Source of the DNA: Cyanobacteria bacterium P01_A01_bin.123 | GTDB lineage: Bacteria > Cyanobacteriota > Cyanobacteriia > Phormidesmidales > Phormidesmidaceae | Length of the DNA: 64,000 bases | Assembly (NCBI GenBank): GCA_039815185.1 | Contig: JBCBZT010000039.1 | Span: 8,876 to 72,875 of the forward strand | Reading direction: 5' to 3' | Part shown: positions 8,718 to 44,544 of the stretch, piece by piece | Numbering within the stretch: position 1 is the stretch's first letter | How the letters are laid out: each line of letters starts with the position of its first letter | The notes under the pieces: generated by a model | The model's input: only the letters and a program-made list of their open reading frames with translations | The model's database searches: none | Told to the model about the DNA's origin: nothing | Made by a program: the position numbers and the translations under genes

Positions 8718-9292
8718 CTATTCATCATCTTCAAATACGGGTGACCAAATACTATCTACCGCCATCTGCCAACCGGGCAAAAGGTCTGGCAACGTCAAAA
8801 TATCCCCCTCCTGAAGCATCAGTACCGCTTGGCTCGGACGATACACCTCCAGCTGATGAATCCTAGGGTCAACCAGTACCCAACTTCAGTGCCCAACTCA
8901 AGAAATGCTTGAATTTTCTGCCGCAGGTTTTCCATCGAATCCGTTTTTGATTTCACCTCAAAGGCAAGATCGGGCACGAGCTGGGCAAAGTCTTCAGTTG
9001 TCCGCCTGAGCCGAGAGGCTCGAATAAATGATGCATCAGGGGCACGCACGTCTTGACTCGCATTGGGTAGAACAAAGCCTGCACTCGAAGCTGCAACCCG
9101 TCCAAGTCGCCGAGGATTCACCCACGTCCATAGTTGCGCCACGATCGCCGCCACAACCTCGTCAGATTCATATCCGGACGGGCTCATAATTGTAATTTCT
9201 CCATCAACCAGTTCCATTTGCCAATCGGGATGCTCAGCCTGGAGCGTTTCTAAATCTTTAATTTTCATGCCTACCTTAGCTTTGAAGACCAT
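8718..9292 (-). pseudogene. Uma2-family endonuclease-fold gene with a 1-nt frameshift
   Basis: MELVDGEITIMSP, APDASF, PDLAFEVKS; adding one G at ~8879-8881 restores GVLVDP...LTLPDLLPGW...WSPVFEDDE* ending at 8718. Confidence 0.8.
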
Positions 9293-27517: not shown

Positions 27518-27720
27518 ATCGGTCTTGAGAGGAATCTAAAATCAATAAACCCGAACGAGGACTCCGACGTTAGGATAGTCATGGTGTTCTGAAGCTTTGT
27601 GTTGGGAAACACTTGGCAGCAGTCTGCCCCGTAATCATTTCAACCACTCTATCGATGATCAACCGCGCCGGCATCAACAAAGCTGCTTCTGAGCCTGGGT
27701 CCTCTCCTATTGTTCGTTCG

Positions 27721-29658
27721 ATGCAGTCTACCAAACCAAAACGGATCCGCTCTAAACTGGGTCGCAGTAGCTTCAGTGCCGCAGCGACTGGGCTATTGAC
27801 AACGGGGTGGCTGTTGATTCAAACCCTAGCGCCCCTGCCTTCCCTGGCCCAAACTGCCGACACTGAAGATCCAGATGAGCTGACCTACAGCGGATTGCTG
27901 GAAAAAATTGATCAAGGGCAAGTTCAGCGGGTTGAGATTGATCCCACCCGTCAGGTTGCCCTGGTTGAGTTAGAGGGACAAGCAGAAGATGAGCCCGATC
28001 AGCGGGTAGATTTATTCGCGAGCGATCGCAACCCTGAGTTAGTCGAACGGTTGCGGGAGAATGATGTTGATTTTGACGTAGTCGCCTCTTCGGATAACAG
28101 TGCCCTCACCTGGCTAGCCACTAACTCACTGTTGGCCTTGATTGTCATTTTTGCCCTACTGATGATTTTGCGGCGATCGGCCAATGCTTCTGGTGGTGCC
28201 ATGAACTTTGGCCGTTCCAAAGCAAAGTTTCAAATGGAAGCCAAGACCGGCGTGTTGTTCGATGATGTTGCAGGCATTGAAGAAGCCAAAGAAGAGCTTC
28301 AAGAAGTCGTCACCTTTTTAAAGAAGCCTGAACGCTTCACCGCTATTGGGGCGCGGATTCCCAAAGGGGTCCTGCTGATTGGCCCACCAGGAACGGGTAA
28401 GACACTGCTGGCTAAAGCGATCGCGGGTGAAGCCGGGGTTCCGTTTTTTAGCATCTCTGGTTCTGAATTTGTGGAGATGTTTGTCGGCGTTGGCGCTTCT
28501 CGCGTCCGCGATCTGTTTAAAAAAGCAAAAGAAAGCGCCCCCTGTATTGTCTTTATTGATGAAATCGACGCTGTGGGGCGGCAGCGCGGTACCGGTATCG
28601 GCGGCGGCAATGATGAACGCGAACAAACCCTCAACCAGTTGTTGACCGAGATGGACGGGTTTGAAGGCAACAGCGGCATCATCGTGATTGCTGCGACCAA
28701 CCGACCCGACGTATTGGATTCGGCATTGCTGCGACCCGGTCGTTTCGATCGTCAAGTGGGTGTTGATTTACCCACCTACAAAGGGCGACTGGGAATTTTG
28801 CAGGTTCATGCCCGCGACAAGAAAATTTCTGAAGAGGTCTCCATCGAAGAAATCGCCCGACGCACTCCGGGTTTCTCCGGCGCTGACTTGGCAAACTTGC
28901 TCAACGAATCGGCAATCTTGACTGCCCGCCGCCGTAAAGATGCCGTCACCATGCTAGAAGTCAACGATGCGATCGATCGCATCACCGTAGGTATGGCCAA
29001 AACTCCCCTGCTAGACAGCTATAAAAAGCGGCTAATTGCCTATCATGAAGTCGGCCATGCCTTAATCGGTGTGCTGCTCGACCATTGTGAACCCCTCGAT
29101 AAGGTGACCATTATTCCCCGTTCTGGAGGCTTGGGCGGTTTCACCAAGTTCGTTCCCAATGAAAGCCGTTTGGATGATGGGTTGCAAAGTCGAGCCGAAA
29201 TTATCGATAACATCACCATGACCCTGGGGGGACGGGCTGCAGAAGAAGAAGTCTTTGGCCACGACGAAGTCACCTTTGGGGCCCAGGGCGATATTCAATC
29301 CGTAGCAGCCTTAGCCCGTCGCATGGTGGCTCGCTATGGCATGTCTGACCTCGGCCCATTAGCTTTAGAAACCTCGGGTGGCGAGGTGTTCTTGGGGCGC
29401 GATCTAATGCCCCGCTCGGAATATTCTGAAGCCGTGGCGACTAAGATCGACAAGCAAGTCCGTGCGATCGCATTCCATTGCCACGCCCAAGCCCGTGAGA
29501 TCTTGCACCAAAATCGTCCGTTGATGGATAAGCTGGTAGACCTGCTGCTCGACATCGAAACTATGGATGGAGATGACTTCCGCAAGGTTGTTAGCGAGTT
29601 TACCCAGATTCCTGAAGAGACCTTGGCTAAGCGAGAGTTGGCTAAACAGACCAGCTAG
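27721..29658 (+). CDS. ftsH: ATP-dependent zinc metalloprotease FtsH (start uncertain, ORF open from 27613)
   Basis: [26 protein letters not shown]...RPGRFDR, HEVGH, two TM helices. Confidence 0.96.
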
Positions 29659-29793
29659 AGCAGACAAGCGAAACGCAATGCATCAATAAGAACTGGCAAT
29701 CGTTAATCGGCGATCGCGGTGAGTTCTGTCTGCCCTCGCAATTGTGCTGTCCTTAATCGTTGGACCGTGGTTCTACTAATCCTGCAGGGTGTC

Positions 29794-29827
29794 AGATCCC
29801 TGGGTTTTCCGAAAAACCCAGGGATCT
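29794..29827. repeat. Perfect 15-bp inverted repeat, possible terminator
   Basis: AGATCCCTGGGTTTT-ccga-AAAACCCAGGGATCT downstream of ftsH. Confidence 0.65.
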
Positions 29828-29860
29828 CTTAGCTCAGACATCATCAAAAATGCTGTGAAT

Positions 29861-29965
29861 TATGGCGCTGGCCAAATTGCTTAATGCACCAGGTAGCGCT
29901 GGGATACTCAATACATAAGCAATCTGGCTCGCCGTAGCGCACAAAGTTTTGTGGCTACGGCTATA
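29861..29965 (+). repeat. ~105-bp dispersed double-hairpin repeat, copy 3
   Basis: Near-identical to 8604-8707 and 21926-22030. Confidence 0.9.
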
Positions 29966-30024
29966 AAAACGGGTACCGCTCGCCACACTTGGGCTTAGAT
30001 GCAGCAGAGCTTGAGCATGGTCGT

Positions 30025-30093
30025 AGAAACCGGGTTTCTCATGCTGAGCGCTGAGTGCCCCATTGACACCCCTTGCTCAGAAACCCGGTTTCT
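30025..30093. repeat. Inverted pair of 15-bp REP-like near-palindromes
   Basis: AGAAACCGGGTTTCT (30025-30039) and its exact reverse complement (30079-30093). Confidence 0.7.
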
Positions 30094-30279
30094 GCAAGGG
30101 GCGACGATCAGCAGGGACTAAAGTCATAATTACCCGTAGCGAGTAACCTACAGTCTCCGAAATCATGTCTACGATCGGTGTGGACTCTACAGACAACCCC
30201 ATCACATCAGGAGACAGGATGACGGCTACACTGCATCAAACTTCGCAACAATCCTGAACACTTTGAACAACCCAGCCCG

Positions 30280-30519
30280 ATGCAGCAGATGGCTTTAACA
30301 CTGATGTTGCTGGCGATTGAACCCCGACTGCTAGACATGAAGCAGGCGATTCAGCGCCCGAGCGATCCAGACTTCGATCGCTACTATGTTTCGTCGCACA
30401 TGGACTATTTGACCCACGCCCGCGATCGCCTTGTCGATCTTGCTGCCATGCCAGGGCCAATTTACACCATTGGGCTAATCGAAGCTTATCCGAAATTCCC
30501 CATTCAGCTCATTCGTTAA
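30280..30519 (+). CDS. Small hypothetical protein or gene remnant
   Basis: 79-aa ORF with natural-looking composition, no recognisable motif. Confidence 0.35.
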   Translation: MQQMALTLMLLAIEPRLLDMKQAIQRPSDPDFDRYYVSSHMDYLTHARDRLVDLAAMPGPIYTIGLIEAYPKFPIQLIR

Positions 30520-30641
30520 TCTTGGATAACCCTATCTCTCGCTTAAGTTGTCCTTAGCTATCGTGGCTAAAATAGCTGATAAGGCCTGCTGACCTTGAAT
30601 GTTGGATTAGGCGTAGACAGCGATCAGGGTGGCAACAGAGC

Positions 30642-31940
30642 ATGGTGTTAGATCTTTCTCAGTTTTACCAAGCGTGTAGTCCCAGTAAATCTCTCAGTTT
30701 TGACCAGGGCGATCAGGGATATTACATTGATTTTTCCCCCGTCCGGGGCGGCAGTATTATTCAAGAATTAGGACGCACAATTACGCGACTTGCCCCCGAT
30801 AGCCCGACCTGTCAACTGTTTACTGGACATGTCGGCTGTGGTAAATCAACAGAGTTGATCTGCCTAAAAACCCTGGTGGAACAGAACAACTTTCACGTGG
30901 TTTATTTTGAATCGAGTGAAGATTTAGATTTAGCCGATGTGGATGTGACTGACATTTTGCTGGCGATCGCGCGTCAAGTCAGCGAGAGTTTAGAGTCCAT
31001 TGAGATTAATTTAGACCTGCCCTATTTCCATCAACTTTTTCAATCCATTGGGGATATCTTTAAACCCGCATTAGCGATCGCAGACCATCAGTTTTCCAAC
31101 ACCATCGCGGAGATTACCGCCCGCACTAAAAACAGCCCAAAACTGCGGAGTCAACTGCGACAGTATTTAGAACCCCGCACTAACGGTATCTTAAATGCTT
31201 TAAATCAAGAATTGCTAGAACCTGCGATCGCAACCTTAAAACAGCGAGGCAAACAGGGATTGTTGGTGATCATTGACAATCTTGATCGGATTGATAACAC
31301 CCCAGGGGTAGCCGGTCGTCATCAACCCAGCTACCTATTTATTGACCGAGGGGAACAGCTGAAAAAGCTTAACTGTCATGTTGTTTATACCCTGCCTTTA
31401 GAATTAGTTTTCTCTAGCGATTTAGGCCTGATTACTAATCGTTTTGGTGTGGTGCCCAAAGTATTAGCAATGGTACCTGTCCGTCACCGAGATGGACAGC
31501 TCAGTCCTGAAGGCATGGTGCTGCTGCGACAATTGGTACTGGCGCGCGCTTTTCCCGGAATTGCTCCCGAACAGCGTTTAGCGTGGCTGGATCAGGTATT
31601 TGATGCCCCAGAGACCCTGGATCGGTTGTGTAGCGTTAGCGGCGGCCATGTCCGTAACCTACTGGTGCTGCTGTATCGCTGTTTGCAACGAGAAGATCCG
31701 CCTTTATCGCGGACTTGCGTTGAGCAAATTCTTCAACAACGCCGCAGTGAATTATTGCTGGCGCTGTCGGTGCCAGAAATCAAATCACTCCAGCGGGTAA
31801 TGGCGGAAAAACACATTCGCCACGACCCTAGTGAACAAATGCTGTTACACAGCATGTTCGTTTTTGAATATCGCAATGGGGGTGAGAGCTGGTTTGATAT
31901 CAACCCCATTCTGGCAGAGTCCCCGGAGTTTCAACCATGA
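30642..31940 (+). CDS. Stand-alone P-loop ATPase, paralog A1 (AAA/KAP/STAND-like)
   Basis: Walker A GHVGCGKST, Walker B LVIIDNLD, SGGHVR, C-terminal WFDINP. Confidence 0.88.
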   Translation: MVLDLSQFYQACSPSKSLSFDQGDQGYYIDFSPVRGGSIIQELGRTITRLAPDSPTCQLFTGHVGCGKSTELICLKTLVEQNNFHVVYFESSEDLDLADVDVTDILLAIARQVSESLESIEINLDLPYFHQLFQSIGDIFKPALAIADHQFSNTIAEITARTKNSPKLRSQLRQYLEPRTNGILNALNQELLEPAIATLKQRGKQGLLVIIDNLDRIDNTPGVAGRHQPSYLFIDRGEQLKKLNCHVVYTLPLELVFSSDLGLITNRFGVVPKVLAMVPVRHRDGQLSPEGMVLLRQLVLARAFPGIAPEQRLAWLDQVFDAPETLDRLCSVSGGHVRNLLVLLYRCLQREDPPLSRTCVEQILQQRRSELLLALSVPEIKSLQRVMAEKHIRHDPSEQMLLHSMFVFEYRNGGESWFDINPILAESPEFQP

Positions 31941-34885
31941 GTGATGACGATTCATCCCAAGGATCAATTCCAGAATCAGATCCAGAATTGAGCCAGTGGT
32001 CAACAGAAAATGATGCCGCTTTAACCGCCCTCATCCGAGCGATTCAGCTATCAGCGGGCCAATTTTCGCTGATTTTAGCCCACTGCAACTATGGCGATCT
32101 GCGCGATCGCGTCATCCAACATCTCAGTCAACGCAATGATCTGGGGCTGACTTTCTTGCACTTGCCCCCCGACGTCAGCTCCCTGTTAACCACGCTGAAA
32201 GAGGCCGACCCTGAAACCCTAGACGCCAAAGAAGGCTCAAATAATAACCCCAGCGCCTTGATGGTGCTGGGGTTAGAGGCGGTTGATCAGCTGCAAATCT
32301 TGCTCAGCACTGCCAATCGAGCCCGAGAAGAATTTCGTAAATCTTTTCCCTTTGCGATGGTGTTATGGGTCAACGACGCCATTTTAAGGCAATTGATTCG
32401 CCGGGCTCCTGATTTAGAAAACTGGGCAACGCCGATCCATTTCACAGTGACACCGCCGGCGTTGCTGAAGCTGCTACAACGCACCACCGACGATGTGTTT
32501 GCCAGAGTCATGGAAGCCGGGGCGGGGCGATTTGTCAATGCAGCCAATTTATACCCCGATGGCGAAGAGAAACAACGCATTAATGCCCTGGAAGCCGCCC
32601 TGCGCGAGCTAAAACTGCGCCAGATTCAACCGGAAGCTGCACTCCAGGCCAGCTTAGAATTCGTCCTGGGACAAGACACTTGGGATCAGCCCGAGACTGC
32701 TCTGGCACATTACGAACACAGCCTCGCAATTTGGCCCCCCGACCAAAATCGCTCTCGTCAAGGGTGTGTGCTGTTTTACCTAGGGCTGTGGTGGCGGGCT
32801 CAGGCGGTGCGTCACCGAGAGCAATATACCGAAGCTTGTGAACAATCGCTAGACTATTTTCGCCAAGCGATTGGCGTCTTTCGCAGCAGCGATCGATTTG
32901 ATTTAGAAGCCCGTTTTATCAACGCCTTAGCAGAAGTTTTGCAACGGCTGGAACGATGGGATGAACTGGCGGATGTCGCCAAGCGGGGCTTAACCCTGCA
33001 CCAACAAGGCGTATCCCTAGCATCTCTGGCAGCTGGACAGATGGATCAAAGCGTCCGCTTAGCCCATGACTACGGCATGATGGCCGATGTGGCGCTATCT
33101 CAGCAGCAGTGGTCTGTCGCTCAAACTCACGCCGAACAAGCCTTAGAGATCTTAAATCAAGTCAATCAGGCGATCGCCAATCATGCTGGACCTCGCCCCG
33201 ATGCTTCCCTCGATTGGGCTCGGGCCTACCACCGCCAACAGTATCACTTTAGTTTGGCCCGAGCGTTGTTGGGCATGGGCCAATATCACGGAGCCATTAC
33301 CCAGCTTGAAATCGCTCAACACCTAGGCAACCCCAAATATGATCCCCAGCTCTACATTCGCATTTCTCGCCAGCTCCAATTGCTCTACTACCGTCAAAAG
33401 CGCTATTTAGAAGCCTTTCAGATTCGCCAAATTTACCGCACCGTCGAACAGCAGTATGGTCTGCGAGCCTTTATCGGGGCCGGGCGGTTGCAGCCCCACC
33501 AAGTGGTGCAAAGTCCAGCCCTAGCTGTGCCCGATCAACCCGATGACATCCCCCCTGAAATCGTTGCCTCTGGGCGTCAACCCGACGTGGAACGGCTAGT
33601 ACATCGCATGTATCGACCTGACTATAAACTCACCGTAATCTACGGTCAGTCTGGGGTAGGCAAAAGTTCCATGATTGAAGCAGGGTTAATCCCGGCGTTG
33701 CAGCAACAGGTGATTGACAGCCGCGAAGTCGTACCCGTACTGCTGCAAATCTACGCCCATTGGGTGAAGCAGTTGGGGGCTCAGCTGGCGATCGCTTCCC
33801 ATCCTGACGACACCAACCCCGTAGATCTGCCGTCGTTAGACGCTCAAGCCACAATTTTGGCCCAACTACAAACCAATGCTGACCACAATCGATTAACCGT
33901 CCTGATTTTTGATCAGTTTGAGGATTTTTTTGCCACGACGGCCAGCCAAGCTTCTCATCGCCCGTTCTACAAGTTTTTAGGACAGTGCTTGGCCCTCCCT
34001 TACATCAAAGTGGTGCTGTCTTTACGTGAAGACTACATCCACCATCTGCTGGTATTCAATCGCCTAGTCAACCTAGATATTATCGACAATAACATCCTCG
34101 ATAAAGCCATCCTTTATCACATTGGCAACTTCACCAAATCCGATGCCCGCCAACTGATTCAGCAGTTGACCCACCAGGCCCAGTTCCATCTAGAACCTGC
34201 TTTGATCGATCGCCTAGTGTATGATTTGGCTGAGGCATCCGAAGAAGTCCGCCCAATTGAACTGCAGGTTTTGGGGAACCAACTCCAAACCGAAAACATC
34301 ACGACTCTAGCCCAGTACGAGACCTTTGCCAATGGAGATCGCAGCTCCAAAGAAGTCATCGTCGAACGCTACCTCGACGCAGTGATCAAAGACTGTGGTC
34401 CCGAAAATCGCCGCGCCGCTGAACTGGTGCTTTACTGGCTGACCGACGAAGCCGAGACCCGCCCCCTACGCACCAAAGCTGAATTGGCCACCAACTTAGA
34501 CTCTGAAGCCCATCGCCTCGATTTGGTACTCAAGATTCTGGTTCACTCCGGAATTGTGTTGCTATTGCCGGCTCACCCGATCGAACGCTATCAGTTGGTT
34601 CATGACTATCTGGTAACTCTAATTCGTCGCCAACGCGGGGCTAAGCTGCTCCAAGAAATTGCCATCCTGCGTCAGCAAGAAGCCGATAGCCGATCTGCAC
34701 TAATGCGTCAGATAAGAAATAGGCTAAGAATAACTATAGTAGGCAGTATACTAGCGCTTTTTCTTGGAGTTTTGGTTGTAGCACTAGCTCTAGAAATTCA
34801 ATCTCTGAGAAATGAAGTTCGGGCTGACAAAATAAGAATCAAGGAACTTGAAAGAATACTTGATCACCTCCAAAATGAGCAATAA
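31937..34885 (+). CDS. NLR-like protein B1: degenerate N-domain, TPR-like helices, nSTAND1-type NTPase, TM helix, short coiled coil, no WD40
   Basis: GQSGVGKSS, LIFDQFED, SLRED, PIELQ, YQLVHDYL; ATGA overlap with A1. Confidence 0.82.
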   Translation: MSDDDSSQGSIPESDPELSQWSTENDAALTALIRAIQLSAGQFSLILAHCNYGDLRDRVIQHLSQRNDLGLTFLHLPPDVSSLLTTLKEADPETLDAKEGSNNNPSALMVLGLEAVDQLQILLSTANRAREEFRKSFPFAMVLWVNDAILRQLIRRAPDLENWATPIHFTVTPPALLKLLQRTTDDVFARVMEAGAGRFVNAANLYPDGEEKQRINALEAALRELKLRQIQPEAALQASLEFVLGQDTWDQPETALAHYEHSLAIWPPDQNRSRQGCVLFYLGLWWRAQAVRHREQYTEACEQSLDYFRQAIGVFRSSDRFDLEARFINALAEVLQRLERWDELADVAKRGLTLHQQGVSLASLAAGQMDQSVRLAHDYGMMADVALSQQQWSVAQTHAEQALEILNQVNQAIANHAGPRPDASLDWARAYHRQQYHFSLARALLGMGQYHGAITQLEIAQHLGNPKYDPQLYIRISRQLQLLYYRQKRYLEAFQIRQIYRTVEQQYGLRAFIGAGRLQPHQVVQSPALAVPDQPDDIPPEIVASGRQPDVERLVHRMYRPDYKLTVIYGQSGVGKSSMIEAGLIPALQQQVIDSREVVPVLLQIYAHWVKQLGAQLAIASHPDDTNPVDLPSLDAQATILAQLQTNADHNRLTVLIFDQFEDFFATTASQASHRPFYKFLGQCLALPYIKVVLSLREDYIHHLLVFNRLVNLDIIDNNILDKAILYHIGNFTKSDARQLIQQLTHQAQFHLEPALIDRLVYDLAEASEEVRPIELQVLGNQLQTENITTLAQYETFANGDRSSKEVIVERYLDAVIKDCGPENRRAAELVLYWLTDEAETRPLRTKAELATNLDSEAHRLDLVLKILVHSGIVLLLPAHPIERYQLVHDYLVTLIRRQRGAKLLQEIAILRQQEADSRSALMRQIRNRLRITIVGSILALFLGVLVVALALEIQSLRNEVRADKIRIKELERILDHLQNEQ
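33050..34710 (+). repeat. ~1.65-kb diverged direct repeat, copy 1 (TPR-NTPase core of B1)
   Basis: Colinear with ~39282-40945; differences mostly at synonymous positions. Confidence 0.9.
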
Positions 34886-35242
34886 ATTCTTTAGACTAAT
34901 CCTATTGGTTTTCCATATATTTGAGCAGATAGATAATACTAAAAATAGTCTAACCGTATGTATCAAGTTAATTTGAGGCAGGGTTTCATCAAGGGCGGCG
35001 GGACTCGTTTCGTTAATGGTTGCAGTAACATCGAGGTCGTCGCGATGGGCACTGCCGAGGTTCAGAGTGTTGATTGGATTAGTTGCTAAGGCATCGGGGG
35101 CCGAAGTTGCGTCTTGGGTTTGGTTAACGTTGATGGCGGTGTTGGCGAGATTGGTTTGGCGCAGGTCGTTGGCCTCGGGTGTGGCGTAAGCGTAGGGTGA
35201 GATTGCAACATTGGCGACTAAGGCGAGTGTGAGGTGTTTCAT
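34790..35242 (-). CDS. Small putative secreted low-complexity protein (3' end uncertain)
   Basis: GGAG upstream of the ATG, signal-peptide-like MKHLTLALVANVAISPYAYA, T/N/D/A-rich body; the tail runs into AT-rich DNA and overlaps B1. Confidence 0.5.
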   Translation of the reverse strand: MKHLTLALVANVAISPYAYATPEANDLRQTNLANTAINVNQTQDATSAPDALATNPINTLNLGSAHRDDLDVTATINETSPAALDETLPQINLIHTVRLFLVLSICSNIWKTNRISLKNLLLILEVIKYSFKFLDSYFVSPNFISQRLNF

Positions 35243-35510
35243 GGTTTGGACTCCGGTAGGGCGGGTGAACTGTTCGCCTTGAGTCTTATGATCTAGCGGA
35301 TTGCTGAGAGGCCTGTGACTGGAAAATAAGTACGGCTTAATAGCAAGCTAAGAATGCCCTATGTGTTTAGGCACGAAGGGGAATACGGTATCGAGGCGAA
35401 ATTTGCAACCCATGATCAATTGTGCAGTTACATTTTTTGAGGCATCTGCTACTCTACGGCTTACTTGAGATAAAAATAAAGAGCAGATTGAAAAATCCTT
35501 GAGGTACATT

Positions 35511-36824
35511 TTGATAGACTTGCAGAGTTTCTTCTCCGCCAGCAATCCTAGCAAGGCTCTATCCATAAGCGACCCTGAGGATCAGATGTACTATATTGAT
35601 TTCTCCTCAGTGCGAGGCGGTCAGCTTACTGAGGCCTTAGAACGAACAATAGTAAGGCTTTCTCCAAATGAGCCGACCTGCCAACTATTCAGTGGCCATA
35701 TTGGTTGTGGTAAGTCAACAGAATTACTTCGTCTTAAGTCAAATTTAGAACTACAAGGGTTCTATGTCGTTTATTTTGAGTCCACTGATTATTTAGATAT
35801 GGCAGATGTCGATATCACAGATATTCTGCTAGCCATTATTCGCCGAGTTAGCGAAAGTTTGGAGGAAATAGGGATCAGACTCAGCTCCAATTATTTTAGT
35901 CACATTTTAAATGAAATATCAGATCTCCTGAATGTACCGATTTCATCGTCCAGCACAATGAATATTTCTACAGGAATCTCAGAGGTTGGAAGACGGGCTC
36001 GGGTTAGTCCAAAAATCCGGAGTCAATTAAGACAATATCTAGAACCCAGAACCAACAGTATTTTGGAAGCTATAAACGTTCTACTACGGTATGCCACTGA
36101 AAAGCTTATGCGGCAAGGTAAAAAGGGAATTGCTATTCTTATTGACAATTTAGACCGTATTGATTCTCGCTCAACCATTGCAGGACGTTCACAACCAGAA
36201 TATATTTTTATTGATCGGGGAGAGCAATTAAGAGCATTGGATTGCCACTTAGTATATACGGTACCAATATCTGTTATTTTCTCCAATGACGGTGAAACGT
36301 TGAAGAATCGATTGGGCGGCGGTATTCGTCCTAAAGTTCTACCAATGATTCCTGTAAAACATCGAGATGGTAGCCGTCATGAGGAGGGTATGTCTCTGTT
36401 AAGACAGATGGTTCTAGCACGAGCATTTCCGAGAGCTAACACAGCACAGCGTTTCAACTTAATCTATGAGATTTTTGATTCTCCTGAAACCTTAGACCGT
36501 CTTTGCTTCATAAGCGGCGGTCACGTGCGGAACTTGTTGGGACTACTCTATCGCTGCCTACAAGAAGAAGATCCCCCATTTTCGAGATCCCTACTAGAAA
36601 AGATGATTCGAGAGACACGAGATGTATTAGTACTGTCAATTTCTGAAAGAGAGTGGAAATTTTTAATAGAGGTAGTGAAGACCCAGATTGTAAGCAGCGA
36701 TAAAGATCTTTGGACTCTTCTAAGAAGTCTATTTCTATTTGAATATCGAGATCAGCAAGGGAGCTGGTTTGACATAAATCCAGTTCTAATAGAAACAGAG
36801 AAATTCAAGTCTTTTCAACTATAG
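35511..36824 (+). CDS. Stand-alone P-loop ATPase, paralog A2
   Basis: GHIGCGKST, ILIDNLD, SGGHVR, WFDINP; colinear with A1; GAGG 6 nt before the TTG at 35511. Confidence 0.88.
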   Translation: MIDLQSFFSASNPSKALSISDPEDQMYYIDFSSVRGGQLTEALERTIVRLSPNEPTCQLFSGHIGCGKSTELLRLKSNLELQGFYVVYFESTDYLDMADVDITDILLAIIRRVSESLEEIGIRLSSNYFSHILNEISDLLNVPISSSSTMNISTGISEVGRRARVSPKIRSQLRQYLEPRTNSILEAINVLLRYATEKLMRQGKKGIAILIDNLDRIDSRSTIAGRSQPEYIFIDRGEQLRALDCHLVYTVPISVIFSNDGETLKNRLGGGIRPKVLPMIPVKHRDGSRHEEGMSLLRQMVLARAFPRANTAQRFNLIYEIFDSPETLDRLCFISGGHVRNLLGLLYRCLQEEDPPFSRSLLEKMIRETRDVLVLSISEREWKFLIEVVKTQIVSSDKDLWTLLRSLFLFEYRDQQGSWFDINPVLIETEKFKSFQL

Positions 36825-36838
36825 ATGCGTTATTAAAA

Positions 36839-38188
36839 GTGGTTGACAATCGATTCCTTGAAGTCTTTAATCCTGTAAATGTCGTAAATGACGACCGCTA
36901 CTATGTTGACTTTTCTCTGGTGACAGGTGAAAGAGTTCTTGAACCAATGAGAAGAACCATTTGCCTTAGCAAGCCAGATAGCTTTACTAGCCAACTGATT
37001 ACAGGTTATGGTGGTTGCGGCAAATCAACAGAGTTAATAAATCTAAAGTCAAAACTCATCCGAGATGGGTTCTATGTTGTTTACTTTAGATTTGAGCGCC
37101 AGCTAAATGAAGTAGATGTAAGGCCAACTGATATTATTTTATTAAGCATTGCTTATCGAGTCATTCAAAGCTTAAAAAGAGACTTCGAAATTAACCTTGA
37201 ACCTAATTTTTTCATAAGAATATGTATCTGGTTAGCGGATGTTCTTTTGGGCATATTTCGTCTTCAGTTGAATTTTGAAGTGGAGCGGGAAATCCCAAAG
37301 GTGGGCAAAGTTAAGATTTCGATTAAACCAAAAGATACTACTAGGAATCTAAGTAAACTCGAATTTTGGGATCGCATTAAACCTTCCTCAAATAATATTT
37401 TAGACTTCGTCAATGAGATTCTTCATAGGGCTACTGGCAAGCTAAAACAGCTTAATAAGAAAGGCCTTGTTGTTATTGTAGACAACCTAGATCACCTGGA
37501 CAAATCGACAGATTTATCTCTACTAGAACAGGTATTTATTGACAGGAATGAACCTTTAAGCCAACTAAAATGCCATATTATTTATACACTCCCAATTTCA
37601 TTAATTTATTCCAAGAAATATGAATCTTTAAAGAGACTAGGTGGTGGCATTGATCCAAAGATATTAAGGATAGTTCCTGTGCAACTTCGCGACGGCAGCG
37701 AGAATTTAGAGGGAATTAAACTTCTTAAGCAAGTAATTCTTTCAAGAGCATTTCCACACGTTCATGTCGATAAACGCTATAGCCTTATTAGCCAACTATT
37801 TGACAATCCAGAAAGCCTAACCAGACTATGCAGAATAAGTGGTGGAAAGGTACAAAAACTTTTGGAAATTCTTAATAATTGTCTGCAAAGAGTATACCCA
37901 AAAATTCTCGTCAAAGGAGATATAGAATATGAAATAAAGCAATATTGCAATAGGCTCTTATTTAGAATGACAGAGGAAGAACGAAAGATAGTTTGTCAGA
38001 TACTACAGAACATTGATCCAGAGATTGCGTTAGAAAAGCGTGAACTTCTTTTGTATGGAATTCAAAAGGGACTTATCCTGGAATATAAAGATCGTTATAA
38101 GGGAAGTTGGTTTGGCCTTGACCCAACTTTTTTAGAGATCGAGGAGTTTCAAGCTATAGTCAAATCAAAAAACTCTAAACATGAGTAG
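36839..38188 (+). CDS. Stand-alone P-loop ATPase, divergent paralog A3
   Basis: GYGGCGKST, VIVDNLD, SGGKVQ, WFGLDP; colinear with A1/A2. Confidence 0.85.
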   Translation: MVDNRFLEVFNPVNVVNDDRYYVDFSLVTGERVLEPMRRTICLSKPDSFTSQLITGYGGCGKSTELINLKSKLIRDGFYVVYFRFERQLNEVDVRPTDIILLSIAYRVIQSLKRDFEINLEPNFFIRICIWLADVLLGIFRLQLNFEVEREIPKVGKVKISIKPKDTTRNLSKLEFWDRIKPSSNNILDFVNEILHRATGKLKQLNKKGLVVIVDNLDHLDKSTDLSLLEQVFIDRNEPLSQLKCHIIYTLPISLIYSKKYESLKRLGGGIDPKILRIVPVQLRDGSENLEGIKLLKQVILSRAFPHVHVDKRYSLISQLFDNPESLTRLCRISGGKVQKLLEILNNCLQRVYPKILVKGDIEYEIKQYCNRLLFRMTEEERKIVCQILQNIDPEIALEKRELLLYGIQKGLILEYKDRYKGSWFGLDPTFLEIEEFQAIVKSKNSKHE

Positions 38189-41100
38189 ATTGCAATCTAC
38201 AAGAGAAGATGACTCTCACAGCGTGTTTGACAAAAAAACGCTACATACCTTGATAAGGACAATTTCATTCTCAGTCAATCAGTTTTCTCTTATCATTTTA
38301 CGCTGCAATTATCAAGAACTGGGTGCAAAAATACTGGAGAGGCTGAAAGGAGTTGATGACCTTAGTATTCAGGAAATAATTCTGCCGGTATCCGCTACAA
38401 CTCTTTACACCACGATCCAGACAGAATTCAGGAAAATAGAATCACAGCCTTCTGCACTAATAATTTTAGGATTAGAAGGCATTAAATCATTAGATGACTT
38501 ATTAGTTTCTGCCAACCAAGTTAGGGACGAATTTCGAAAAAGCTTTTCTTGTCCTGTGATTTTATTATGTGACGATGAGGCTTTGCAGAAGTTAGTAAGG
38601 CTAGCTCCCGATTTCTATAATTGGGCAACACTTATACAAGTCAATATTTCCACGCCAATATTATACAAATTTATGCGGACAAAAGCGGATAATATTTTTG
38701 CTTTGGCTTCCGAAATAGACTTGAAAAACTTTCAGAATAGAAAGCTTATATATTCAGAAGAAATAGCACGGCAAAAGAAAGAAATTGAGTACGCCTATTC
38801 TGATTTTCAGGATCATTATGCGAATTCTAATCCAGAAATTGTAGCGATCCTAGACTTTACTTGCGGACTAGAACTTCATGCCAACAACTTAACTTCTGAT
38901 GCTCTAGAGAAATATTCAAACAGTTTGGACTTCTGGCGGGAAAAGGACTCAGAGAGATTAGGTGTCTTGCTATTCTATATGGGGATTTGCTACTACCATC
39001 ATGCTCTTAATCAGCATGAGATTACTAGATTCTCTGAGCAAGCAAAGAACTGCTTTAAAGGCTGTTTGACAACATTCGAACAGGGGAAGCATCTTGACCT
39101 AGTGTCAAAATACATCGGGCAAGTTGGCAAAGCCTTGGAGCGAATGGAGGCTTGGGAAGACCTGGAGATACTTGCATCAAGGGCATTGAGCCTCCATAGT
39201 ACTCTCTACAATTCAGCATATTTAGGAGGAGGTAGCGATTCCCTATCTAAAGTCGCACTATATCAAGCACAATGGGAAAATAGCATACGTCTGGCTCACG
39301 ATCACGGCATGTTAGCCAATGTGGCGCTGTCTCAGCAGCAGTGGTCTGTTGCTCAAACCCATGCTGAGCAGGCTCTAGATATTTTGAATCAGGTCAACCA
39401 AGCGGCCGCCCCTGGGATTCCGTCACAAACTAATGGATCTTTGAATTGGGATAGAGCTTACTACTGCCAGCAGTATCACTTTAGTTTAGCCCAGGCGCTG
39501 TCGGGCATGGGACAGTACCACGAGGCCATTACCCAACTTGAAATTGCTCAACACTTGGGTAATCTCGAATATGACCCCCAGCTCTACATCCGCATTTCTC
39601 GCCGGTTGCAGCTGCTCTACTATAGCCAAAAACGCTATTTAGAAGCCTTTCAAATGCGCCAAATCTACCGCACTGTCGAACAACAGTACGGTCTGCGAGC
39701 CTTTACTGGCGCTGGACGGTTGCGGCCTCGTAAAACGTTGCACAGTCCAGCGCTAGACGTCCCCGATCAACCCGATGACATTCCCCCCGAAATTGTTGCC
39801 TCTGGGCGTCAACCCGATGTGGAACGGTTGGTGCATCGCATGTATCGGCCCGACTATAAACTCACCGTGATCTATGGCCAGTCTGGGGTTGGTAAAAGCT
39901 CCATGATTGAAGCAGGGCTGATTCCGGCGTTGCAGCGCCAGGTGATTGACAGTCGTGAAGTCGTGCCTGTGCTCCAGCAAATTTATGCTCATTGGCTCAA
40001 GCAGTTGGAGGTTCAGCTGGTGCTCGCATCCCATCCTAAGGGTGCCAAACAGGCCTCAAAAACACCCTACCTAGACACGCCAGCGGCGATTTTGGCCCAA
40101 CTCCAAACCAATGCCGATCGCAATCAACTGACGGTCCTGATTTTTGACCAGTTTGAGGAATTTTTTGTCACGACAGCTAGCCAACCTCACCATCGCCAGT
40201 TTTACGAGTTCTTAGGACAGTGCTTGGCCTTACCCTATGTCAAAGTCATCCTGTCTTTGCGCGAAGACTATATTCACCACCTGCTGGCTTTCAATCGCCT
40301 TGTCAATCTAGACATTATCGACAACAACATTCTCGATAAGTCCATCCTCTACCGCATTGGCAACTTCACCAAGCCCGACGCCCGCCGGCTGATTCAGCAG
40401 TTGACCTACCAAGCGCAATTTCCTTTAGAACCTACTTTGGTAGAGCGTCTGGTGGAAGATTTGGCTGGAGGCTCTGAGGAAGTTCGCCCGATTGAGCTGC
40501 AAATGCTAGGGGAGCAGCTCCAAACCGAAAACATCACAACCTTAGCCCAGTACGAGACCTTTGCCAACCGCGAACGCAGTTCAAAAGAAGTGATTGTCGA
40601 TCGCTATCTCGACTCAGTCATCAAAGACTGTGGCCCCGAAAATCGTCGTGCTGCCGAGATGGTCCTCTACTGGCTCACCGACGAAGCCGAAACCCGTCCC
40701 CTGCGCACCAAAGCTGAACTGGCCACCAATTTAGGCTCTGAAGCCCATCGCCTCGATTTGGTACTCAAGATTTTGGTTCACTCCGGGATTGCCTTGCTGC
40801 TGCCCGCCCACCCGATCGAACGCTATCAGCTGGTTCACGACTATCTAGTAGCCCTGATTCGCCGCCAGCGTGGGGCCAAACTGCTCCAAGAAATTGCCAT
40901 ACTGCGCCGGCAAGAAGCGGATAACCGCTTTGCCCTAGTCCGTCAAAAACGTCTGCTGCGAAACGGCGGTATTGTGCTTGCCATCAGTTTGGGAGTGATG
41001 TCGATTCTAGGCACCTTAGCTAGCCGGATTCAAACCCAAAATCAGCTAATCCAGTTGAGATTAGATGCCAGTAATGCCCTCGAACTTTACGAAATTTCTC

Positions 41101-43091
41101 AAACGGAGGGGTTGCTCGCTGCCCTGGAAGCAGCCCAAAACCTACGCAAACTAGACGCAACCGAGCAAGCTAGGATCGTAGCGATGGTGCTACAGCAGAT
41201 GCTGAATCAATTTACTCAAGACCACACCTTCATTACCGACCAGAATGAAATTTTGGCCCTTAGTGTTAGCCCAGACGACACCTTACTGATCACGGCGGAT
41301 GCCGAAGGATTTGTCAAACTTTGGACGATAGCCGGAGAATTAAAGCACACGCTGCCGCGCCAAGACGGTTCTATTTGGGGGGTCGAGTTTAGCGCCGATG
41401 GCAAAACTTTTGCAATCGCGGGCACCAATGGGCAGGTCTCCCACTGGGATTTAAACGGCAAGCAGATTACCCAGTGGTCAGCCCACAGCGATAGTGGCGT
41501 CGCGAGTTTGGCCTATCATCCCAATGGCGATCGCATCGCCACTGCTGGGGCAGACGGCAGTGTCAAGGTGTGGGATACTGATGGCAACTTAGCCAAGGCC
41601 TGGATCGCCTCCACTGAAGGTGAGGTGATTGCCAACCTGAGCTTTAGCCCTGACGGCAATTATCTGGCAACCGCAGGCTACGATGGCCAAGTGCAAGTTT
41701 GGAATATTGAAGGCCAACTCGTTCATCGTTTTGATCATGCTGAAGCAGTGTTGGACTTGAGTTTTCATCCCCGGGGTAATCAACTGGCCAGCGTTGATCA
41801 AGTCGGCAATATTTACCTGTGGGATTTGGAACAAGGGGAGTTGCTGCAAACAATGGGGGAAGGCAGTCAACCGCTGGCCGCAGTTCGCTTTACCGAGGAC
41901 GGCAACCAACTGGTGGTTGCGGGTGATTTGGGCATTGTGCAACTTTGGGATATACGTGGCTACAAACTGACAGATTTAGTCGGCCATCAAAGTTGGGTTT
42001 GGGCCCTTGATCGCCGACCTAATGGTCAATTTATCTCCGCTGATATCAGTGGCAAAGTCCAAATCTGGGATGTGACCGATCGGGCTCAGGCGCGCTGGTC
42101 TGCCTACGACGCGATCGCGTGGAGTGTTAACTTTAGCCCCGATGGCCAAACATTGCTGACTGCTGGGGAAACCGGGATAGCCACTCGCTGGGATTTAAAC
42201 GGCGATCGCTTGACTCAATACGAAGGGCACGGGGCCGTCACGATTGGTGATCTAGCCCCCCAACAAAACATTTACTGGGCTGAATTTAGTGCCGACGGCG
42301 ATCGAGTGGTTACCGCCGGTCAAGACGGCACTGCTCGGGTTTGGTCTTTAACAGGGCAAGAACTAGCGCTGCTCAATCACGAAGAAGCCGTCGTCAACAC
42401 GGCCACTATTAGCCCAAATGGTGACTCCATCGCAACTGGCGACGGCTTAGGCGACGTCCGGCTATGGAGCATCAATGGAGAGTTACAACAAACCTTAGAA
42501 GCCCATTCAGAGAGGGTTTTAAGCGTCCGCTTTAGCCCCGATGGTCAGTATTTAGCAACCGCCAGTAGCGATCGCACCGCGCAGATTTGGGATCTTCAAA
42601 CTCAAAAACCCATCGTTCAGCTCGAAGGCCATCAAGACACGGTATCTTGGGTTGCTTTTAGTCCCGATGGTCAGGCCGTGGTCACCGCCAGTCACGATGG
42701 CACCGCCCGCCTTTGGGATCTGCAAGGCAATCTGATCACCGAACTGATTGGTCATTCCCGCCGAATTACCTGGGTAGGGTTTAGTCCCAAAGGCAATTAC
42801 ATCGCCACTGCCAGTGCTGATAATCGAGTAATTCTATGGCGCTATCAGGGCAGCCAAACCCATCAAATGCGACAGTTCACCGGCTATGCGGGCGAGGTCT
42901 TTAGTGCCTCATTTAGCCCCGACGAACAAACCATTGCGGTTTCAGATAGTACGGGAACCATCACGCTATGGCCCATCGAAAACCTCGATATGCTAATTGA
43001 GCGCGGGTGCGATTGGGTCCGCCAGTTCAATGCCCCCAAGGGTAAAGAACGTTCCGAACTTAGCAGTGTCTTGGCTGAATGTAGTCAATAG
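38181..43091 (+). CDS. NLR-like protein B2: degenerate N-domain, TPR-like helices, nSTAND1-type NTPase, TM helix, 14 WD40 repeats
   Basis: GQSGVGKSS, LIFDQFEE, YQLVHDYL, TM GGIVLAISLGVMSILGTLA, 14 counted repeats of the FSPDG...ATAS.D...WD type; 8-nt overlap with A3. Confidence 0.9.
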   Translation: MSRLQSTREDDSHSVFDKKTLHTLIRTISFSVNQFSLIILRCNYQELGAKILERLKGVDDLSIQEIILPVSATTLYTTIQTEFRKIESQPSALIILGLEGIKSLDDLLVSANQVRDEFRKSFSCPVILLCDDEALQKLVRLAPDFYNWATLIQVNISTPILYKFMRTKADNIFALASEIDLKNFQNRKLIYSEEIARQKKEIEYAYSDFQDHYANSNPEIVAILDFTCGLELHANNLTSDALEKYSNSLDFWREKDSERLGVLLFYMGICYYHHALNQHEITRFSEQAKNCFKGCLTTFEQGKHLDLVSKYIGQVGKALERMEAWEDLEILASRALSLHSTLYNSAYLGGGSDSLSKVALYQAQWENSIRLAHDHGMLANVALSQQQWSVAQTHAEQALDILNQVNQAAAPGIPSQTNGSLNWDRAYYCQQYHFSLAQALSGMGQYHEAITQLEIAQHLGNLEYDPQLYIRISRRLQLLYYSQKRYLEAFQMRQIYRTVEQQYGLRAFTGAGRLRPRKTLHSPALDVPDQPDDIPPEIVASGRQPDVERLVHRMYRPDYKLTVIYGQSGVGKSSMIEAGLIPALQRQVIDSREVVPVLQQIYAHWLKQLEVQLVLASHPKGAKQASKTPYLDTPAAILAQLQTNADRNQLTVLIFDQFEEFFVTTASQPHHRQFYEFLGQCLALPYVKVILSLREDYIHHLLAFNRLVNLDIIDNNILDKSILYRIGNFTKPDARRLIQQLTYQAQFPLEPTLVERLVEDLAGGSEEVRPIELQMLGEQLQTENITTLAQYETFANRERSSKEVIVDRYLDSVIKDCGPENRRAAEMVLYWLTDEAETRPLRTKAELATNLGSEAHRLDLVLKILVHSGIALLLPAHPIERYQLVHDYLVALIRRQRGAKLLQEIAILRRQEADNRFALVRQKRLLRNGGIVLAISLGVMSILGTLASRIQTQNQLIQLRLDASNALELYEISQTEGLLAALEAAQNLRKLDATEQARIVAMVLQQMLNQFTQDHTFITDQNEILALSVSPDDTLLITADAEGFVKLWTIAGELKHTLPRQDGSIWGVEFSADGKTFAIAGTNGQVSHWDLNGKQITQWSAHSDSGVASLAYHPNGDRIATAGADGSVKVWDTDGNLAKAWIASTEGEVIANLSFSPDGNYLATAGYDGQVQVWNIEGQLVHRFDHAEAVLDLSFHPRGNQLASVDQVGNIYLWDLEQGELLQTMGEGSQPLAAVRFTEDGNQLVVAGDLGIVQLWDIRGYKLTDLVGHQSWVWALDRRPNGQFISADISGKVQIWDVTDRAQARWSAYDAIAWSVNFSPDGQTLLTAGETGIATRWDLNGDRLTQYEGHGAVTIGDLAPQQNIYWAEFSADGDRVVTAGQDGTARVWSLTGQELALLNHEEAVVNTATISPNGDSIATGDGLGDVRLWSINGELQQTLEAHSERVLSVRFSPDGQYLATASSDRTAQIWDLQTQKPIVQLEGHQDTVSWVAFSPDGQAVVTASHDGTARLWDLQGNLITELIGHSRRITWVGFSPKGNYIATASADNRVILWRYQGSQTHQMRQFTGYAGEVFSASFSPDEQTIAVSDSTGTITLWPIENLDMLIERGCDWVRQFNAPKGKERSELSSVLAECSQ
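39282..40945 (+). repeat. ~1.65-kb diverged direct repeat, copy 2 (TPR-NTPase core of B2)
   Basis: Colinear with ~33050-34710, offset ~6.23 kb. Confidence 0.9.
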
Positions 43092-43345
43092 CAGGGTGCG
43101 TAAAACCTTTTCTAACTAGATCAACAGCAACCCCTACCCCTGAGGGCAATTGAGGCTGAGTTCCTTAAGAGGACAAGGTTCTAAAGGGCGCTTGCTGTTG
43201 TGAGTTGCCTACCATGAGCCCTAACCAGATGACTCAATCTACCGAGTATCACCCTATTACTCAGCCTACAGACAATCTGGTTCGCAGCCGCAGACGAAGC
43301 ATTACCTCGGCTGCTGTATAATTTGCTTATCATTCTAGAGGTTTT

Positions 43346-43561
43346 TTGATGAAGACCTTGATGCCCCTTACTCTAACAGCCATCACCCTAGGATTTGTCT
43401 CTGCCGTTGCCAATCCGGCCCAACTCAAACTCGTATCAACCCGCATAGAAACCGAGCGGCAGTTCTCATGGGTTTACCAACCACCGATTGGAGGCGAGCG
43501 TAGCGGTCAGCAAGGTACCCGATTTGAGTCTCGTCCTGCAGATTGGGTCGAACAGATTTAG
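43346..43561 (+). CDS. Small putative secreted peptide
   Basis: GAGG upstream; signal-peptide-like MKTLMPLTLTAITLGFVSAVA; 71 aa. Confidence 0.5.
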   Translation: MMKTLMPLTLTAITLGFVSAVANPAQLKLVSTRIETERQFSWVYQPPIGGERSGQQGTRFESRPADWVEQI

Positions 43562-43650
43562 ACTCTCGATGGGTGTCTTTAGAAACTGGGTTTCTCACCG
43601 ATGCAACAACACAATCAAGCTTTTGGCAAAAATACCCCAGTGCTTGCACC

Positions 43651-44544
43651 TCAACGTTTTACACCCGTTGTAGCAATGCCCTGAATAAATTGCCGCTGCC
43701 CCACCAGAAACAGACCCACTACGGGAATTGTGGCAATGACCACTGCCGCCATCAACAGCGGCCAATCATTGGTGAACTGCTCTTGAAACGCCGCCAAGGC
43801 CAACTGCACCGTTTGCAACTCGGGGCGAGTCGTAAACACTAGGGGTTTGAACAAATCGTTCCACTCGCCAATAAACGTAAATAGAAACAACGTCACTAAG
43901 GCCGGGCGGGCCAGCGGTAAGAGGACTTGCCAAAGAATTTGTAGCCGATTGGCCCCGTCTAAGGCAGCCGCTTCTTCTAGTTCAACGGGCAGCGTTTGAA
44001 AATACTGACGCATCAAGAAAATGCCAAACCCATTGGCCGCTGTCGGCAAAATCAGTGCTCCATAGGTGTTAATCAAGTGGCCCCACTTCAGCACCAAGAA
44101 AATAGGAATCACCAGCAACTGAAAGGGAATCACTAGCGTGGCCAGGATGGCCAGCAACAATCCCTGTCGCCCTCGAAAGGATAGCCTTGCTAACACATAC
44201 CCAGCTAAGGCAGAAGTCGTAATCTGTAGGCCTGTTACCGCGATCGCTACCAGCGTCGAATTGGCAAACGCCAGTAAAAAATTACCTTGTGCCCAAGCCA
44301 TTCGATAGCTGTCCAACGACCAGGCTGAAATAGGCGCGATCGCCCCCGTCTGAGTAATTCCAGCAGGAGAGAAAGAAACCCACAACACCATTGCCAAGGG
44401 CCACAAAACGACCCCCGCCCCAATGACCAGCAGGCCGACTATTCCCCAGCGTTTTCCCTGAGCCAACCGGGAAAATGGTTCAGGTGTTGGCCCCAGTGAA
44501 TCCACAGTAGGCAAATTCTCACTGGTTACGATAGGGAATGGCAT
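43651..44544 (-). CDS. Carbohydrate ABC transporter permease
   Basis: EAA motif ELEEAAALDGA, FANSTLVA, WNDLFKPLV, multiple TM helices. Confidence 0.92.
   Translation of the reverse strand: MPFPIVTSENLPTVDSLGPTPEPFSRLAQGKRWGIVGLLVIGAGVVLWPLAMVLWVSFSPAGITQTGAIAPISAWSLDSYRMAWAQGNFLLAFANSTLVAIAVTGLQITTSALAGYVLARLSFRGRQGLLLAILATLVIPFQLLVIPIFLVLKWGHLINTYGALILPTAANGFGIFLMRQYFQTLPVELEEAAALDGANRLQILWQVLLPLARPALVTLFLFTFIGEWNDLFKPLVFTTRPELQTVQLALAAFQEQFTNDWPLLMAAVVIATIPVVGLFLVGQRQFIQGIATTGVKR

Follow-up and report, generated by a model that had tools for sequence, protein, structure and literature searches.

STAND/NLR proteins (signal transduction ATPases with numerous domains; nucleotide-binding leucine-rich repeat receptors) have a central place in the immunity of animals, plants, and bacteria, and for each family the main question is how its sensor, switch, and output are connected. 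One clade, nSTAND1, has been tied to predicted conflict systems of multicellular bacteria and, in the main text of that study, its members carry N-terminal effectors or effector-associated domains (EADs) and pair homotypically with neighboring effector genes (Kaur, Iyer, Burroughs, Aravind, eLife 2021, PMC8195603). The main texts of other papers describe nSTAND1 proteins diversified by diversity-generating retroelements (PMC10907252), mention Apaf-1-like STAND-WD40 proteins of cyanobacteria (PMC13581612, Nature 2026, and its preprint; the supplementary tables, with 589 STAND clades and their defense scores, may cover the families treated here), and set out MoxR-vWA ternary and iSTAND systems with membrane-associated versions (Kaur et al., eLife 2020, PMC7159879) and ORC/Cdc6-like partners in ParA systems (10.64898/2026.10.19.760177). 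Here we describe a locus in a 64,000-nucleotide stretch from Cyanobacteria bacterium P01_A01_bin.123 (positions 8,876 to 72,875 of contig JBCBZT010000039.1, assembly GCA_039815185.1; the window) in which two modules, A1-B1 and A2-A3-B2, join genes for small ATPases (A) to genes for nSTAND1 proteins (B). We put the chances at about even that both modules belong to an NLR-like (STAND) receptor system made of two proteins, widespread in large-genome cyanobacteria, whose likeliest role is in conflict or surveillance. In the main texts of the nSTAND1, conflict-system, and cyanobacterial STAND/WD40 literature, we found no description of the A partner, of the N-terminal domain of B (the N-domain), or of the A-B pairing.

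The arrangement of the five genes as two tightly coupled same-strand modules, proposed in a preliminary description of this DNA, was confirmed from the open reading frames (ORFs) and the junction sequences (Table 1): A1 and B1 share an ATGA overlap, A2 and A3 are separated by a 14-nt gap, and A3 and B2 overlap by 8 nt. All five frames are open, and their motifs are intact. The end of the locus, previously placed at 43561, has to be moved, since B2 stops at 43091 and the remaining 470 bp (43092-43561) are intergenic.

That B is a membrane-anchored, NLR-like STAND protein with WD40 repeats is supported by its nSTAND1 domain, its hydrophobic helix, and its repeats. B1 and B2 match nSTAND1 (PF20703) with 117.0 and 115.8 bits, far above the Pfam cut-off of 27.1 (paralogs on contigs C15, C104, and C113 match too), and the motifs assigned earlier to a second nucleoside triphosphatase (NTPase) in B could be read in both proteins: GQSGVGKSS (Walker A), LTVLIFDQFE (Walker B, with the LIFDQFE noted before), and LVHDYL. 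The 14 WD40 repeats claimed for B2 were also counted, as units spaced by ~41-42 aa over aa 1042-1597, and they are mutually 15-46% identical at the protein level. A tandem-repeat search of the WD40 region gave no match, and an array under concerted evolution, like those of fungal NWD genes, is ruled out by the low identity of the repeats. B1 has no WD40 repeats because it is truncated relative to its orthologs, which keep them. The hydrophobic helix is present in 76 of 104 B homologs, and counts of lysine plus arginine around it are higher on the N-terminal side in 86 of 119 homologs, equal in 21, and lower in 12; this charge bias suggests that the WD40 part may lie outside the cytoplasm.

In a predicted structure of B1 residues 1 to 530 (predicted local distance difference test score [pLDDT] of 85.5), aa 23-194 form an alpha/beta N-domain with five beta-alpha units, and aa 200-510 form a TPR solenoid like those of LGN/Pins and Rap/NprR (Foldseek, VIA). 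All Foldseek and VIA matches of this 530-residue model were TPR proteins, so that the N-domain was barely probed by them. Comparison of eight N-domains with Pfam at E values up to 5 returned scattered single matches, none of them meaningful, and the cluster atlas returned unnamed clusters alone; no known effector domain or EAD was found at the B N-terminus in either search. Profile alignment of the N-domain by hhalign gave a probability of 3% against the nucleotide-binding domain of A and 3% or less against nSTAND1. The B N-terminus is a new alpha/beta domain, belonging to no Pfam family, joined to TPR.

The A proteins had been described as P-loop ATPases of ~430-450 aa with intact Walker motifs and no effector domain, and we read Walker A (GxxGCGKST) and Walker B (DNLD) in A1, A2, and A3, while Pfam added no domain. 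The Pfam matches were all sub-threshold or borderline P-loop matches (AAA_22, ATPase_2, KAP, AAA_16, and NPHP3_N); for KAP (PF07693), A1 scored 21.8 bits against a cut-off of 20, A3 fell below it with 18.8, and A2 gave no match. Transmembrane helices within the NTPase domain are reportedly a trait of the KAP family. No KAP-type transmembrane insertion was found in the A proteins: A1 and A2 lack any 19-mer with a Kyte-Doolittle value of >1.6, and A3 has a single weak stretch at residues 122-126. The AlphaFold model of A1, built with 94 homologs (pLDDT 95.6, pTM 0.93), is made up of a nucleotide-binding AAA+ core, a helical lid, and a winged-helix-like C terminus. In VIA comparisons it aligned with TnsC (Z 15.6, root-mean-square deviation [rmsd] 4.1, 288 residues), Cdc6 (Z 15.0, rmsd 3.4, 249 residues), and the archaeal proteins PAB2304 (Z 14.4, rmsd 5.0, 304 residues) and SSO1545 (Z 13.9), with TnsC, Cdc6, ORC, and PAB2304 spanning Z 13-15.6; Z scores were lower for ZAR1 (12.3), Dark (11.9), MalT (11.0), Avs3 (10.2), and CED-4 (9.8). 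Foldseek matched the model to ORC1/Cdc6 (E 2.3e-6), and a sequence search of solved structures found no chain matching A1 or B1 at E values up to 1. Since the structural matches to initiator-clade AAA+ proteins cover nearly the full length of A1, A is, on the predicted fold, an ORC/Cdc6/TnsC/STAND-like ATPase of that clade, consisting of a bare module of nucleotide-binding domain, lid, and winged-helix-like part.

Three lines of evidence indicate that A and B form a dedicated pair, as had been proposed: their co-occurrence, their predicted docking, and the co-transfer of A2-A3 with the B2 N-domain in one low-GC block. The neighborhood survey of A-type ATPases bears out the first of these. Among 31 related genomes, of which 23 have A and 25 have the N-domain, 63 of 79 A matches are followed directly on the same strand by an N-domain match, and 57 of 96 N-domain matches have A upstream. 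We also collected 80 loci of other species with a 13-row alignment; 75 A genes in them have at least 1500 bp of downstream sequence, and 70 of these are followed by an N-domain gene, whereas the five A genes without such a partner adjoin unrelated housekeeping genes. The 55 complete B genes with nSTAND1 include 49 with at least five WD40 matches (most have 14) and 37 with the helix, and short B forms ending past the helix are present in other genomes. The source genome itself (8.09 Mb in 133 contigs, with 5.99% contamination) has nine A matches and eight matches to the N region of B (seven or eight N-domain genes), mostly side by side, together with one orphan A (contig C19). In three distant pairs (two on C94 and one on C49) the partner consists of N-domain and TPR alone, a form also seen in many relatives, and this reduces the conserved core to A and a protein of N-domain and TPR. 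Far from being single copy and invariant, the locus is multicopy and variable among close relatives. In the source genome, one A paralog (G000:C104:3970-5265) has an in-frame TAG, and at G000:C94:72254-76724 a DDE transposase gene lies between A and its N-domain-TPR partner. Three more B genes, on C15 (1-3635), C104 (1-3789), and C113 (1-3986), each run off the contig end within the WD40 region, so that the B genes of this genome may differ in number and form from those counted here. Upstream of the C113 copy is a CHAT-CHASE2 gene instead of A.

Modeling of A with B placed A1 on the N-domain of B1. The complex of A1 with B1(1-530) gave interface scores (ipSAE) of 0.74, 0.71, and 0.74, compared with 0.00 for the best of three controls; the runs share at least 91% of their contacts, and the partners have pLDDT values of at least 80. 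The docking mark is reached by 116 of 157 solved complexes and by 2 of 215 mismatched pairs, both rough counts (own alignments). On the B1 side the contacts comprise residues 27-45, 124-134, and 147-168 of the N-domain and, outside it, just residues 223 and 227. Among them are R130, which is invariant, and E132, F133, R134, D147, D159, and W163, which nearly are, so that five of six conserved polar residues of the N-domain (R130, E132, R134, D147, and D159) lie at the interface. On the A1 side they include the P-loop (64-65), the neighborhood of Walker B (213-218), and the lid (338-350). The model thus supports binding of A to the B N-domain, and R130 might act on the nucleotide bound to A. 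We know of no complex like that between A and the N-domain, so a score owed to memorization by the predictor seems unlikely.

Domain fusions bear on what A might do. Among 19 fused forms of A that were picked, 2 carry a C-terminal TIR domain (on a Calothrix NIES-4101 plasmid and in Nostoc CALU 1950), 1 carries CHAT and TRADD-N, 1 an alpha/beta hydrolase (in a Desulfococcaceae metagenome-assembled genome), and 2 AAA_16 plus TPR. The Calothrix plasmid has the gene order A, A-TIR, B, and its B has two tandem N-domains; genome G074 repeats this layout, with A, A-TIR (TIR_2, E 1.2e-31), and a B that bears two N-domains. Two N-domains were found in none of the 70 single-A modules and in 1 of 120 B homologs. 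The number of N-domains thus tracks that of A genes among the cases observed, two of which have the double form (n = 2). In a quick tree, the only A phylogeny used here, A3 groups with the TIR-bearing A of the Calothrix plasmid, both on long branches, and the nearest relative of A3 among 5.8 billion clusters is 43% identical to it. The annotation of the plasmid record (Calothrix sp. NIES-4101 plasmid4; L028, 1-1981 and 18550-20091) lists a further WD-repeat gene, a TPR gene, and genes for reverse transcriptase close to the module.

The history of the locus in the window is that of an exchange. The preliminary description regarded it as a duplicated locus expanded into paired modules. Two modules are indeed present, but simple duplication does not fit the identity pattern, in which identity is 54% between A1 and A2, 37-39% between A3 and each of these, and, for B1 with B2, ~30% over the first 380 aa but 80-100% in the nSTAND1 part; an ancestral single B split by an inserted cassette describes it better. 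Between the two nSTAND1-coding regions, GC content falls from ~0.52-0.53 on both sides to 0.35 in the B1 tail, 0.47 in the spacer, 0.41 in A2, 0.36 in A3, and 0.39 in the B2 N terminus, whereas the nSTAND1, helix, and WD40 parts of B2 have the native composition. Relatives P0126 and P0519 (1639 aa), like P0127 and P0128, have no such block and carry one uninterrupted gene that corresponds to the front of B1 and the back of B2. Their B matches B1 over aa 1 to ~925 (with 96-100% identity in the first 600 aa for P0126) and B2 from the helix onward, with 72-100% identity per 50 aa in the WD40 part and 0.56 in the last partial window; WD40 blades 3-5 are 72-74% identical to the P0126/P0519 orthologs, and the other blades are 90-100% identical. 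The uninterrupted 1639-aa gene in these relatives implies that the ancestral state was one A-B pair. As far as can be read from these alignments, the comparison shows that the ancestral A1-B pair was split by a low-GC cassette, consisting of a short tail, A2, A3, and a foreign N-domain, to leave a truncated B1 and a chimeric B2. The cassette breakpoints coincide with domain borders, and A2, A3, and their N-domain appear to have arrived together, with switch and sensor staying in place; such joint arrival fits A and the N-domain being a coadapted unit. What is new in the window is this recent, domain-precise cassette exchange. The two nSTAND1-coding direct repeats are 81.4% identical over 1648 columns (blastn) and 67-90% identical per 100 bp, and recent gene conversion between them is ruled out by the absence of any 100-bp window above 90% identity. 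The spacer at 34970-35355 is 82% identical to G000:C14:28072-28470, the site of a 109-aa minus-strand ORF with a signal-peptide-like start; a minus-strand ORF of the window itself (34790-35242, 150 aa) gave no Pfam match.

Taken together, these results suggest a wiring that is described in none of the main texts that we consulted, a membrane-spanning STAND receptor whose output would be a separately encoded AAA+ ATPase on a dedicated docking domain, with TIR as optional cargo. The sensor would be the WD40 double propeller of B, probably on the outer side of the single membrane helix, and the switch would be the nSTAND1 NTPase of B. The N-domain and TPR module of B would take the place of the effector or adaptor of other STAND proteins, with A predicted to dock one to one on the N-domain, which would lie over the nucleotide cleft of A. 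Ligand binding and NTP-driven assembly of B might then cluster or release the docked A, whose ATP-dependent state would be the output, the effector not being encoded in cis in the window. Because TIR occurs on an extra A paralog in sister systems, we regard conflict or surveillance, directed at phage, other invaders, or non-self, as the most likely role, by analogy with those systems. A bolder and only tentative reading, to which we give clearly less credence, is that N-domain and A represent a new heterotypic adaptor principle, with a dead docking domain for each ORC/Cdc6-like ATPase linking outside sensing to exchangeable ATPase-effector subunits; its further element, one N-domain per A and two where a TIR-bearing A has been added, we hold to be equally doubtful. 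If the principle is true, the window cassette is a natural swap of a docking-domain/ATPase unit onto a resident switch and sensor. On either reading the pair occurs in most of the large-genome filamentous cyanobacteria sampled, and the window is a natural experiment in which a docking-domain/ATPase block moved between lineages and switch and sensor stayed, which points to coevolving parts.

Several observations weigh against a receptor system for conflict. The docking of A on B is a model rather than a measurement, and the searches described above placed the N-domain in no fold class. The helix is absent from 28 of 104 B homologs, so that a topology with an outside sensor is not general. A2-A3-B2 of the window is an exception to the correspondence of N-domains and A genes, pairing two A genes with a single N-domain and lacking TIR on A3, and B1 may be a nonfunctional remnant. 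No effector gene was found among the five genes and 18 neighbors scanned in the window and its flanks, and NCBIfam returned no match for the A proteins. PADLOC-DB v2 gave nothing below E 1e-4 for the A proteins, the best match being the candidate family PDC-S20 at E 1e-4 (A1 and A2), for which we found no literature; HEAT-ARM_XIII of PADLOC matched the WD40 repeats of B2 alone (E 3e-23). The suggestion of a role in defense or self/non-self recognition therefore found no support from PADLOC or from the gene content of the window. A is also 51-63% identical across orders, unusually conserved for a defense gene. Of 201 genomes sampled across the phylum, 51 gave an A match, all of them at least 3.8 Mb in size; A was present in 25/26, 10/10, 4/4, and 3/3 of the sampled genomes of some families and in 0/82 of another. 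Finally, ftsQ (POTRA) and ftsZ, called with Pfam on one example per cluster, are the immediate upstream neighbors of A, in divergent orientation, in 25 of the 80 related loci (L042, L051, L066, L069, L073-L077, L080, L082, L083, L085, L088, L089, L091-L094, L099, L100, L102, L104, L106, and L107), in Microcoleus, Fischerella, Calothrix, Okeania, and other taxa of several families.

The conservation of A, its linkage to ftsQ-ftsZ, and the lack of a defense match make one alternative a serious rival, that the pair is a core signaling device of filamentous cyanobacteria, which reports the state of the envelope or periplasm and is possibly tied to division or filament integrity, with the TIR versions as side branches. 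It would explain the near-universal presence of A in several families alongside its absence from another, the ftsQ-ftsZ neighborhood of one A clade across several genera, and the 14-repeat WD40 number kept in most complete B proteins. The ftsQ-ftsZ-linked A genes, however, form one or two clades of the quick tree, with A1 of the window in another, and ftsQ-ftsZ of the source genome (C92) adjoins no A-B. A copy number that ranges from 1 to 10 per genome, the strain-level difference made by the cassette insertion, the pseudogenized, transposon-split, and plasmid-borne copies, the fusions of A to TIR and to CHAT plus TRADD-N, and the five orphan A genes among housekeeping genes also fit a core device poorly. 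We therefore consider it possible, with appreciably lower probability than the receptor system for conflict or surveillance. Should the conflict reading fail, the pair would be a conserved, unexplored envelope-to-cytoplasm signaling device, possibly linked to division.

A further alternative, which we think improbable, assigns A a role within B signaling itself, either as an assembly or threshold factor for B, in a role like that of a MoxR chaperone, or as the NTPase component of a split STAND unit whose TPR sensor stands ahead of a second unit, nSTAND1-WD40. The minimal pair of A and N-domain-TPR protein (C94, C49, and many relatives) is what such a role would predict, as is the modeled position of the N-domain over the nucleotide cleft of A, expected of a regulator of nucleotide state, and the A-TIR modules retain a plain A. 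Yet the initiator-type AAA+ fold of A is complete and ends in a winged-helix-like part, as in proteins that work on DNA or self-assemble, and the effector fusions sit on A rather than on B.

In a separate assembly of the probable source run from the same sample, contigs at 34508-35200 and 35177-40765 bridge both edges of the low-GC block without differences, and no contig joins B1 directly to the back part of B2. The contig over the insert (35177-40765) has a mean depth of 22.1 in run X1, compared with 31-32 in the flanking contigs, a difference that could come from strain mixture or composition bias. An assembly artifact, or decay of B1 and A3 into functionless remnants, might be read from that depth, the fragmented and partly contaminated assembly, the three B genes that run off contig ends, the truncation of B1, and the very long branch of A3, but is very improbable given the bridging contigs (from the same sample and thus not independent), the five open frames with intact motifs, nSTAND1 repeats too diverged (81% alike) to collapse or be confused, and the short B forms that end after the helix in other genomes.

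The genes around the locus are ordinary cyanobacterial ones: ftsH (27613-29658), an ABC permease gene (43651-44544, minus strand), the alkane genes for aldehyde decarbonylase and acyl-ACP (acyl carrier protein) reductase (ado/aar), and accA. No MoxR or vWA gene was found among the five genes and their 18 scanned neighbors. The ado neighborhood is not shared: none of the 22 relatives with ado has an A match next to its main copy of the gene. At G028:C10:281851-288406, an A3-like A and its short N-domain partner are found ~4.6 kb away from an additional ado-like copy of 62% identity, a proximity that may be chance. Scans of 29600-43700 found 22 promoter and 13 terminator sites, compared with 17.3 and 15.1 expected from shuffles, and no RNA sequencing run is listed as containing the stretch, which was found solely in its probable source metagenome. 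Between ftsH and A1, at 29856-29965, lies a dispersed repeat of ~110 bp with >150 copies of 75-93% identity across the genome contigs, which looks like a miniature inverted-repeat transposable element.

Table 1. Genes, protein parts, and repeats of the A-B locus (positions in the window)
Feature	Positions	Strand	Residues or length	Start, basis, or content
A1	30642-31940	+	432 aa	ATG start (ORF list)
B1	31937-34885	+	982 aa	ATG start (ORF list)
B1 N-domain	32003-32518	+	aa ~23-194	Predicted structure
B1 TPR solenoid	32534-33466	+	aa ~200-510	Predicted structure
Direct repeat copy 1	33072-34710	+	1.64 kb	nSTAND1-coding region of B1, GC 0.52
B1 nSTAND1	33572-34618	+	aa 546-894	Pfam
Low-GC block	34712-39308	+		B1 tail, spacer, A2, A3, first 376 codons of B2
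B1 hydrophobic helix	34727-34801	+	aa ~931-955	Kyte-Doolittle 2.34 over 19-mer
B1 tail after helix		+	Short	Low GC (composition)
A2	35499-36824	+	441 aa	TTG start (ORF list)
A3	36839-38188	+	449 aa	GTG start (ORF list)
B2	38181-43091	+	1636 aa	ATG start (ORF list)
B2 N-domain	38184-38750	+	aa 2-190	Followed by TPR-like helices
Direct repeat copy 2	39304-40945	+	1.64 kb	nSTAND1-coding region of B2, GC 0.525
B2 nSTAND1	39804-40850	+	aa 542-890	Pfam
B2 hydrophobic helix	40953-41024	+	aa ~925-948	Kyte-Doolittle 2.02 over 19-mer
B2 WD40 repeats (14)	41199-42971	+	aa ~1007-1597	

Compared with known systems, A stands closest in its modeled structure to ORC/Cdc6, TnsC/MuB, and the archaeal PF01637 ATPases (PAB2304 and SSO1545), which it matches over most of its length. 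Unlike these, it is encoded together with an N-domain protein; its sequence identity to them is 10-16%, with no sequence-level match to solved chains at E values up to 1. The MoxR-vWA and iSTAND systems (PMC7159879), as set out in the main text, share with the locus the pairing of a helper NTPase with a multidomain protein that serves as sensor or effector, the occurrence in multicellular bacteria, and the existence of membrane-associated versions. The locus differs from the MoxR-vWA ternary systems in lacking MoxR, vWA, and VMAP and in having an initiator-clade AAA+ protein as the helper.

Like Apaf-1 and the bacterial Apaf-1-like proteins treated in the main text of PMC13581612, B2 has an NTPase followed by a double WD40 propeller, and recruitment of a second protein at the N terminus is proposed. 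In contrast to them, the B NTPase is nSTAND1, with no NB-ARC match listed by Pfam, and there is no CARD or caspase domain; the hydrophobic helix lies between NTPase and WD40, and the recruited partner would be an ATPase, not a protease. There is likeness also to the nSTAND1 systems of PMC8195603, to judge from its main text: B1 and B2 have a true nSTAND1 domain, B2 ends in beta-propeller repeats, and there is the same bias to large-genome cyanobacteria. The B proteins depart from those systems in having a non-Pfam domain plus TPR at the N terminus, a membrane helix between switch and sensor, and, as partner, an AAA+ protein that is predicted to dock heterotypically.

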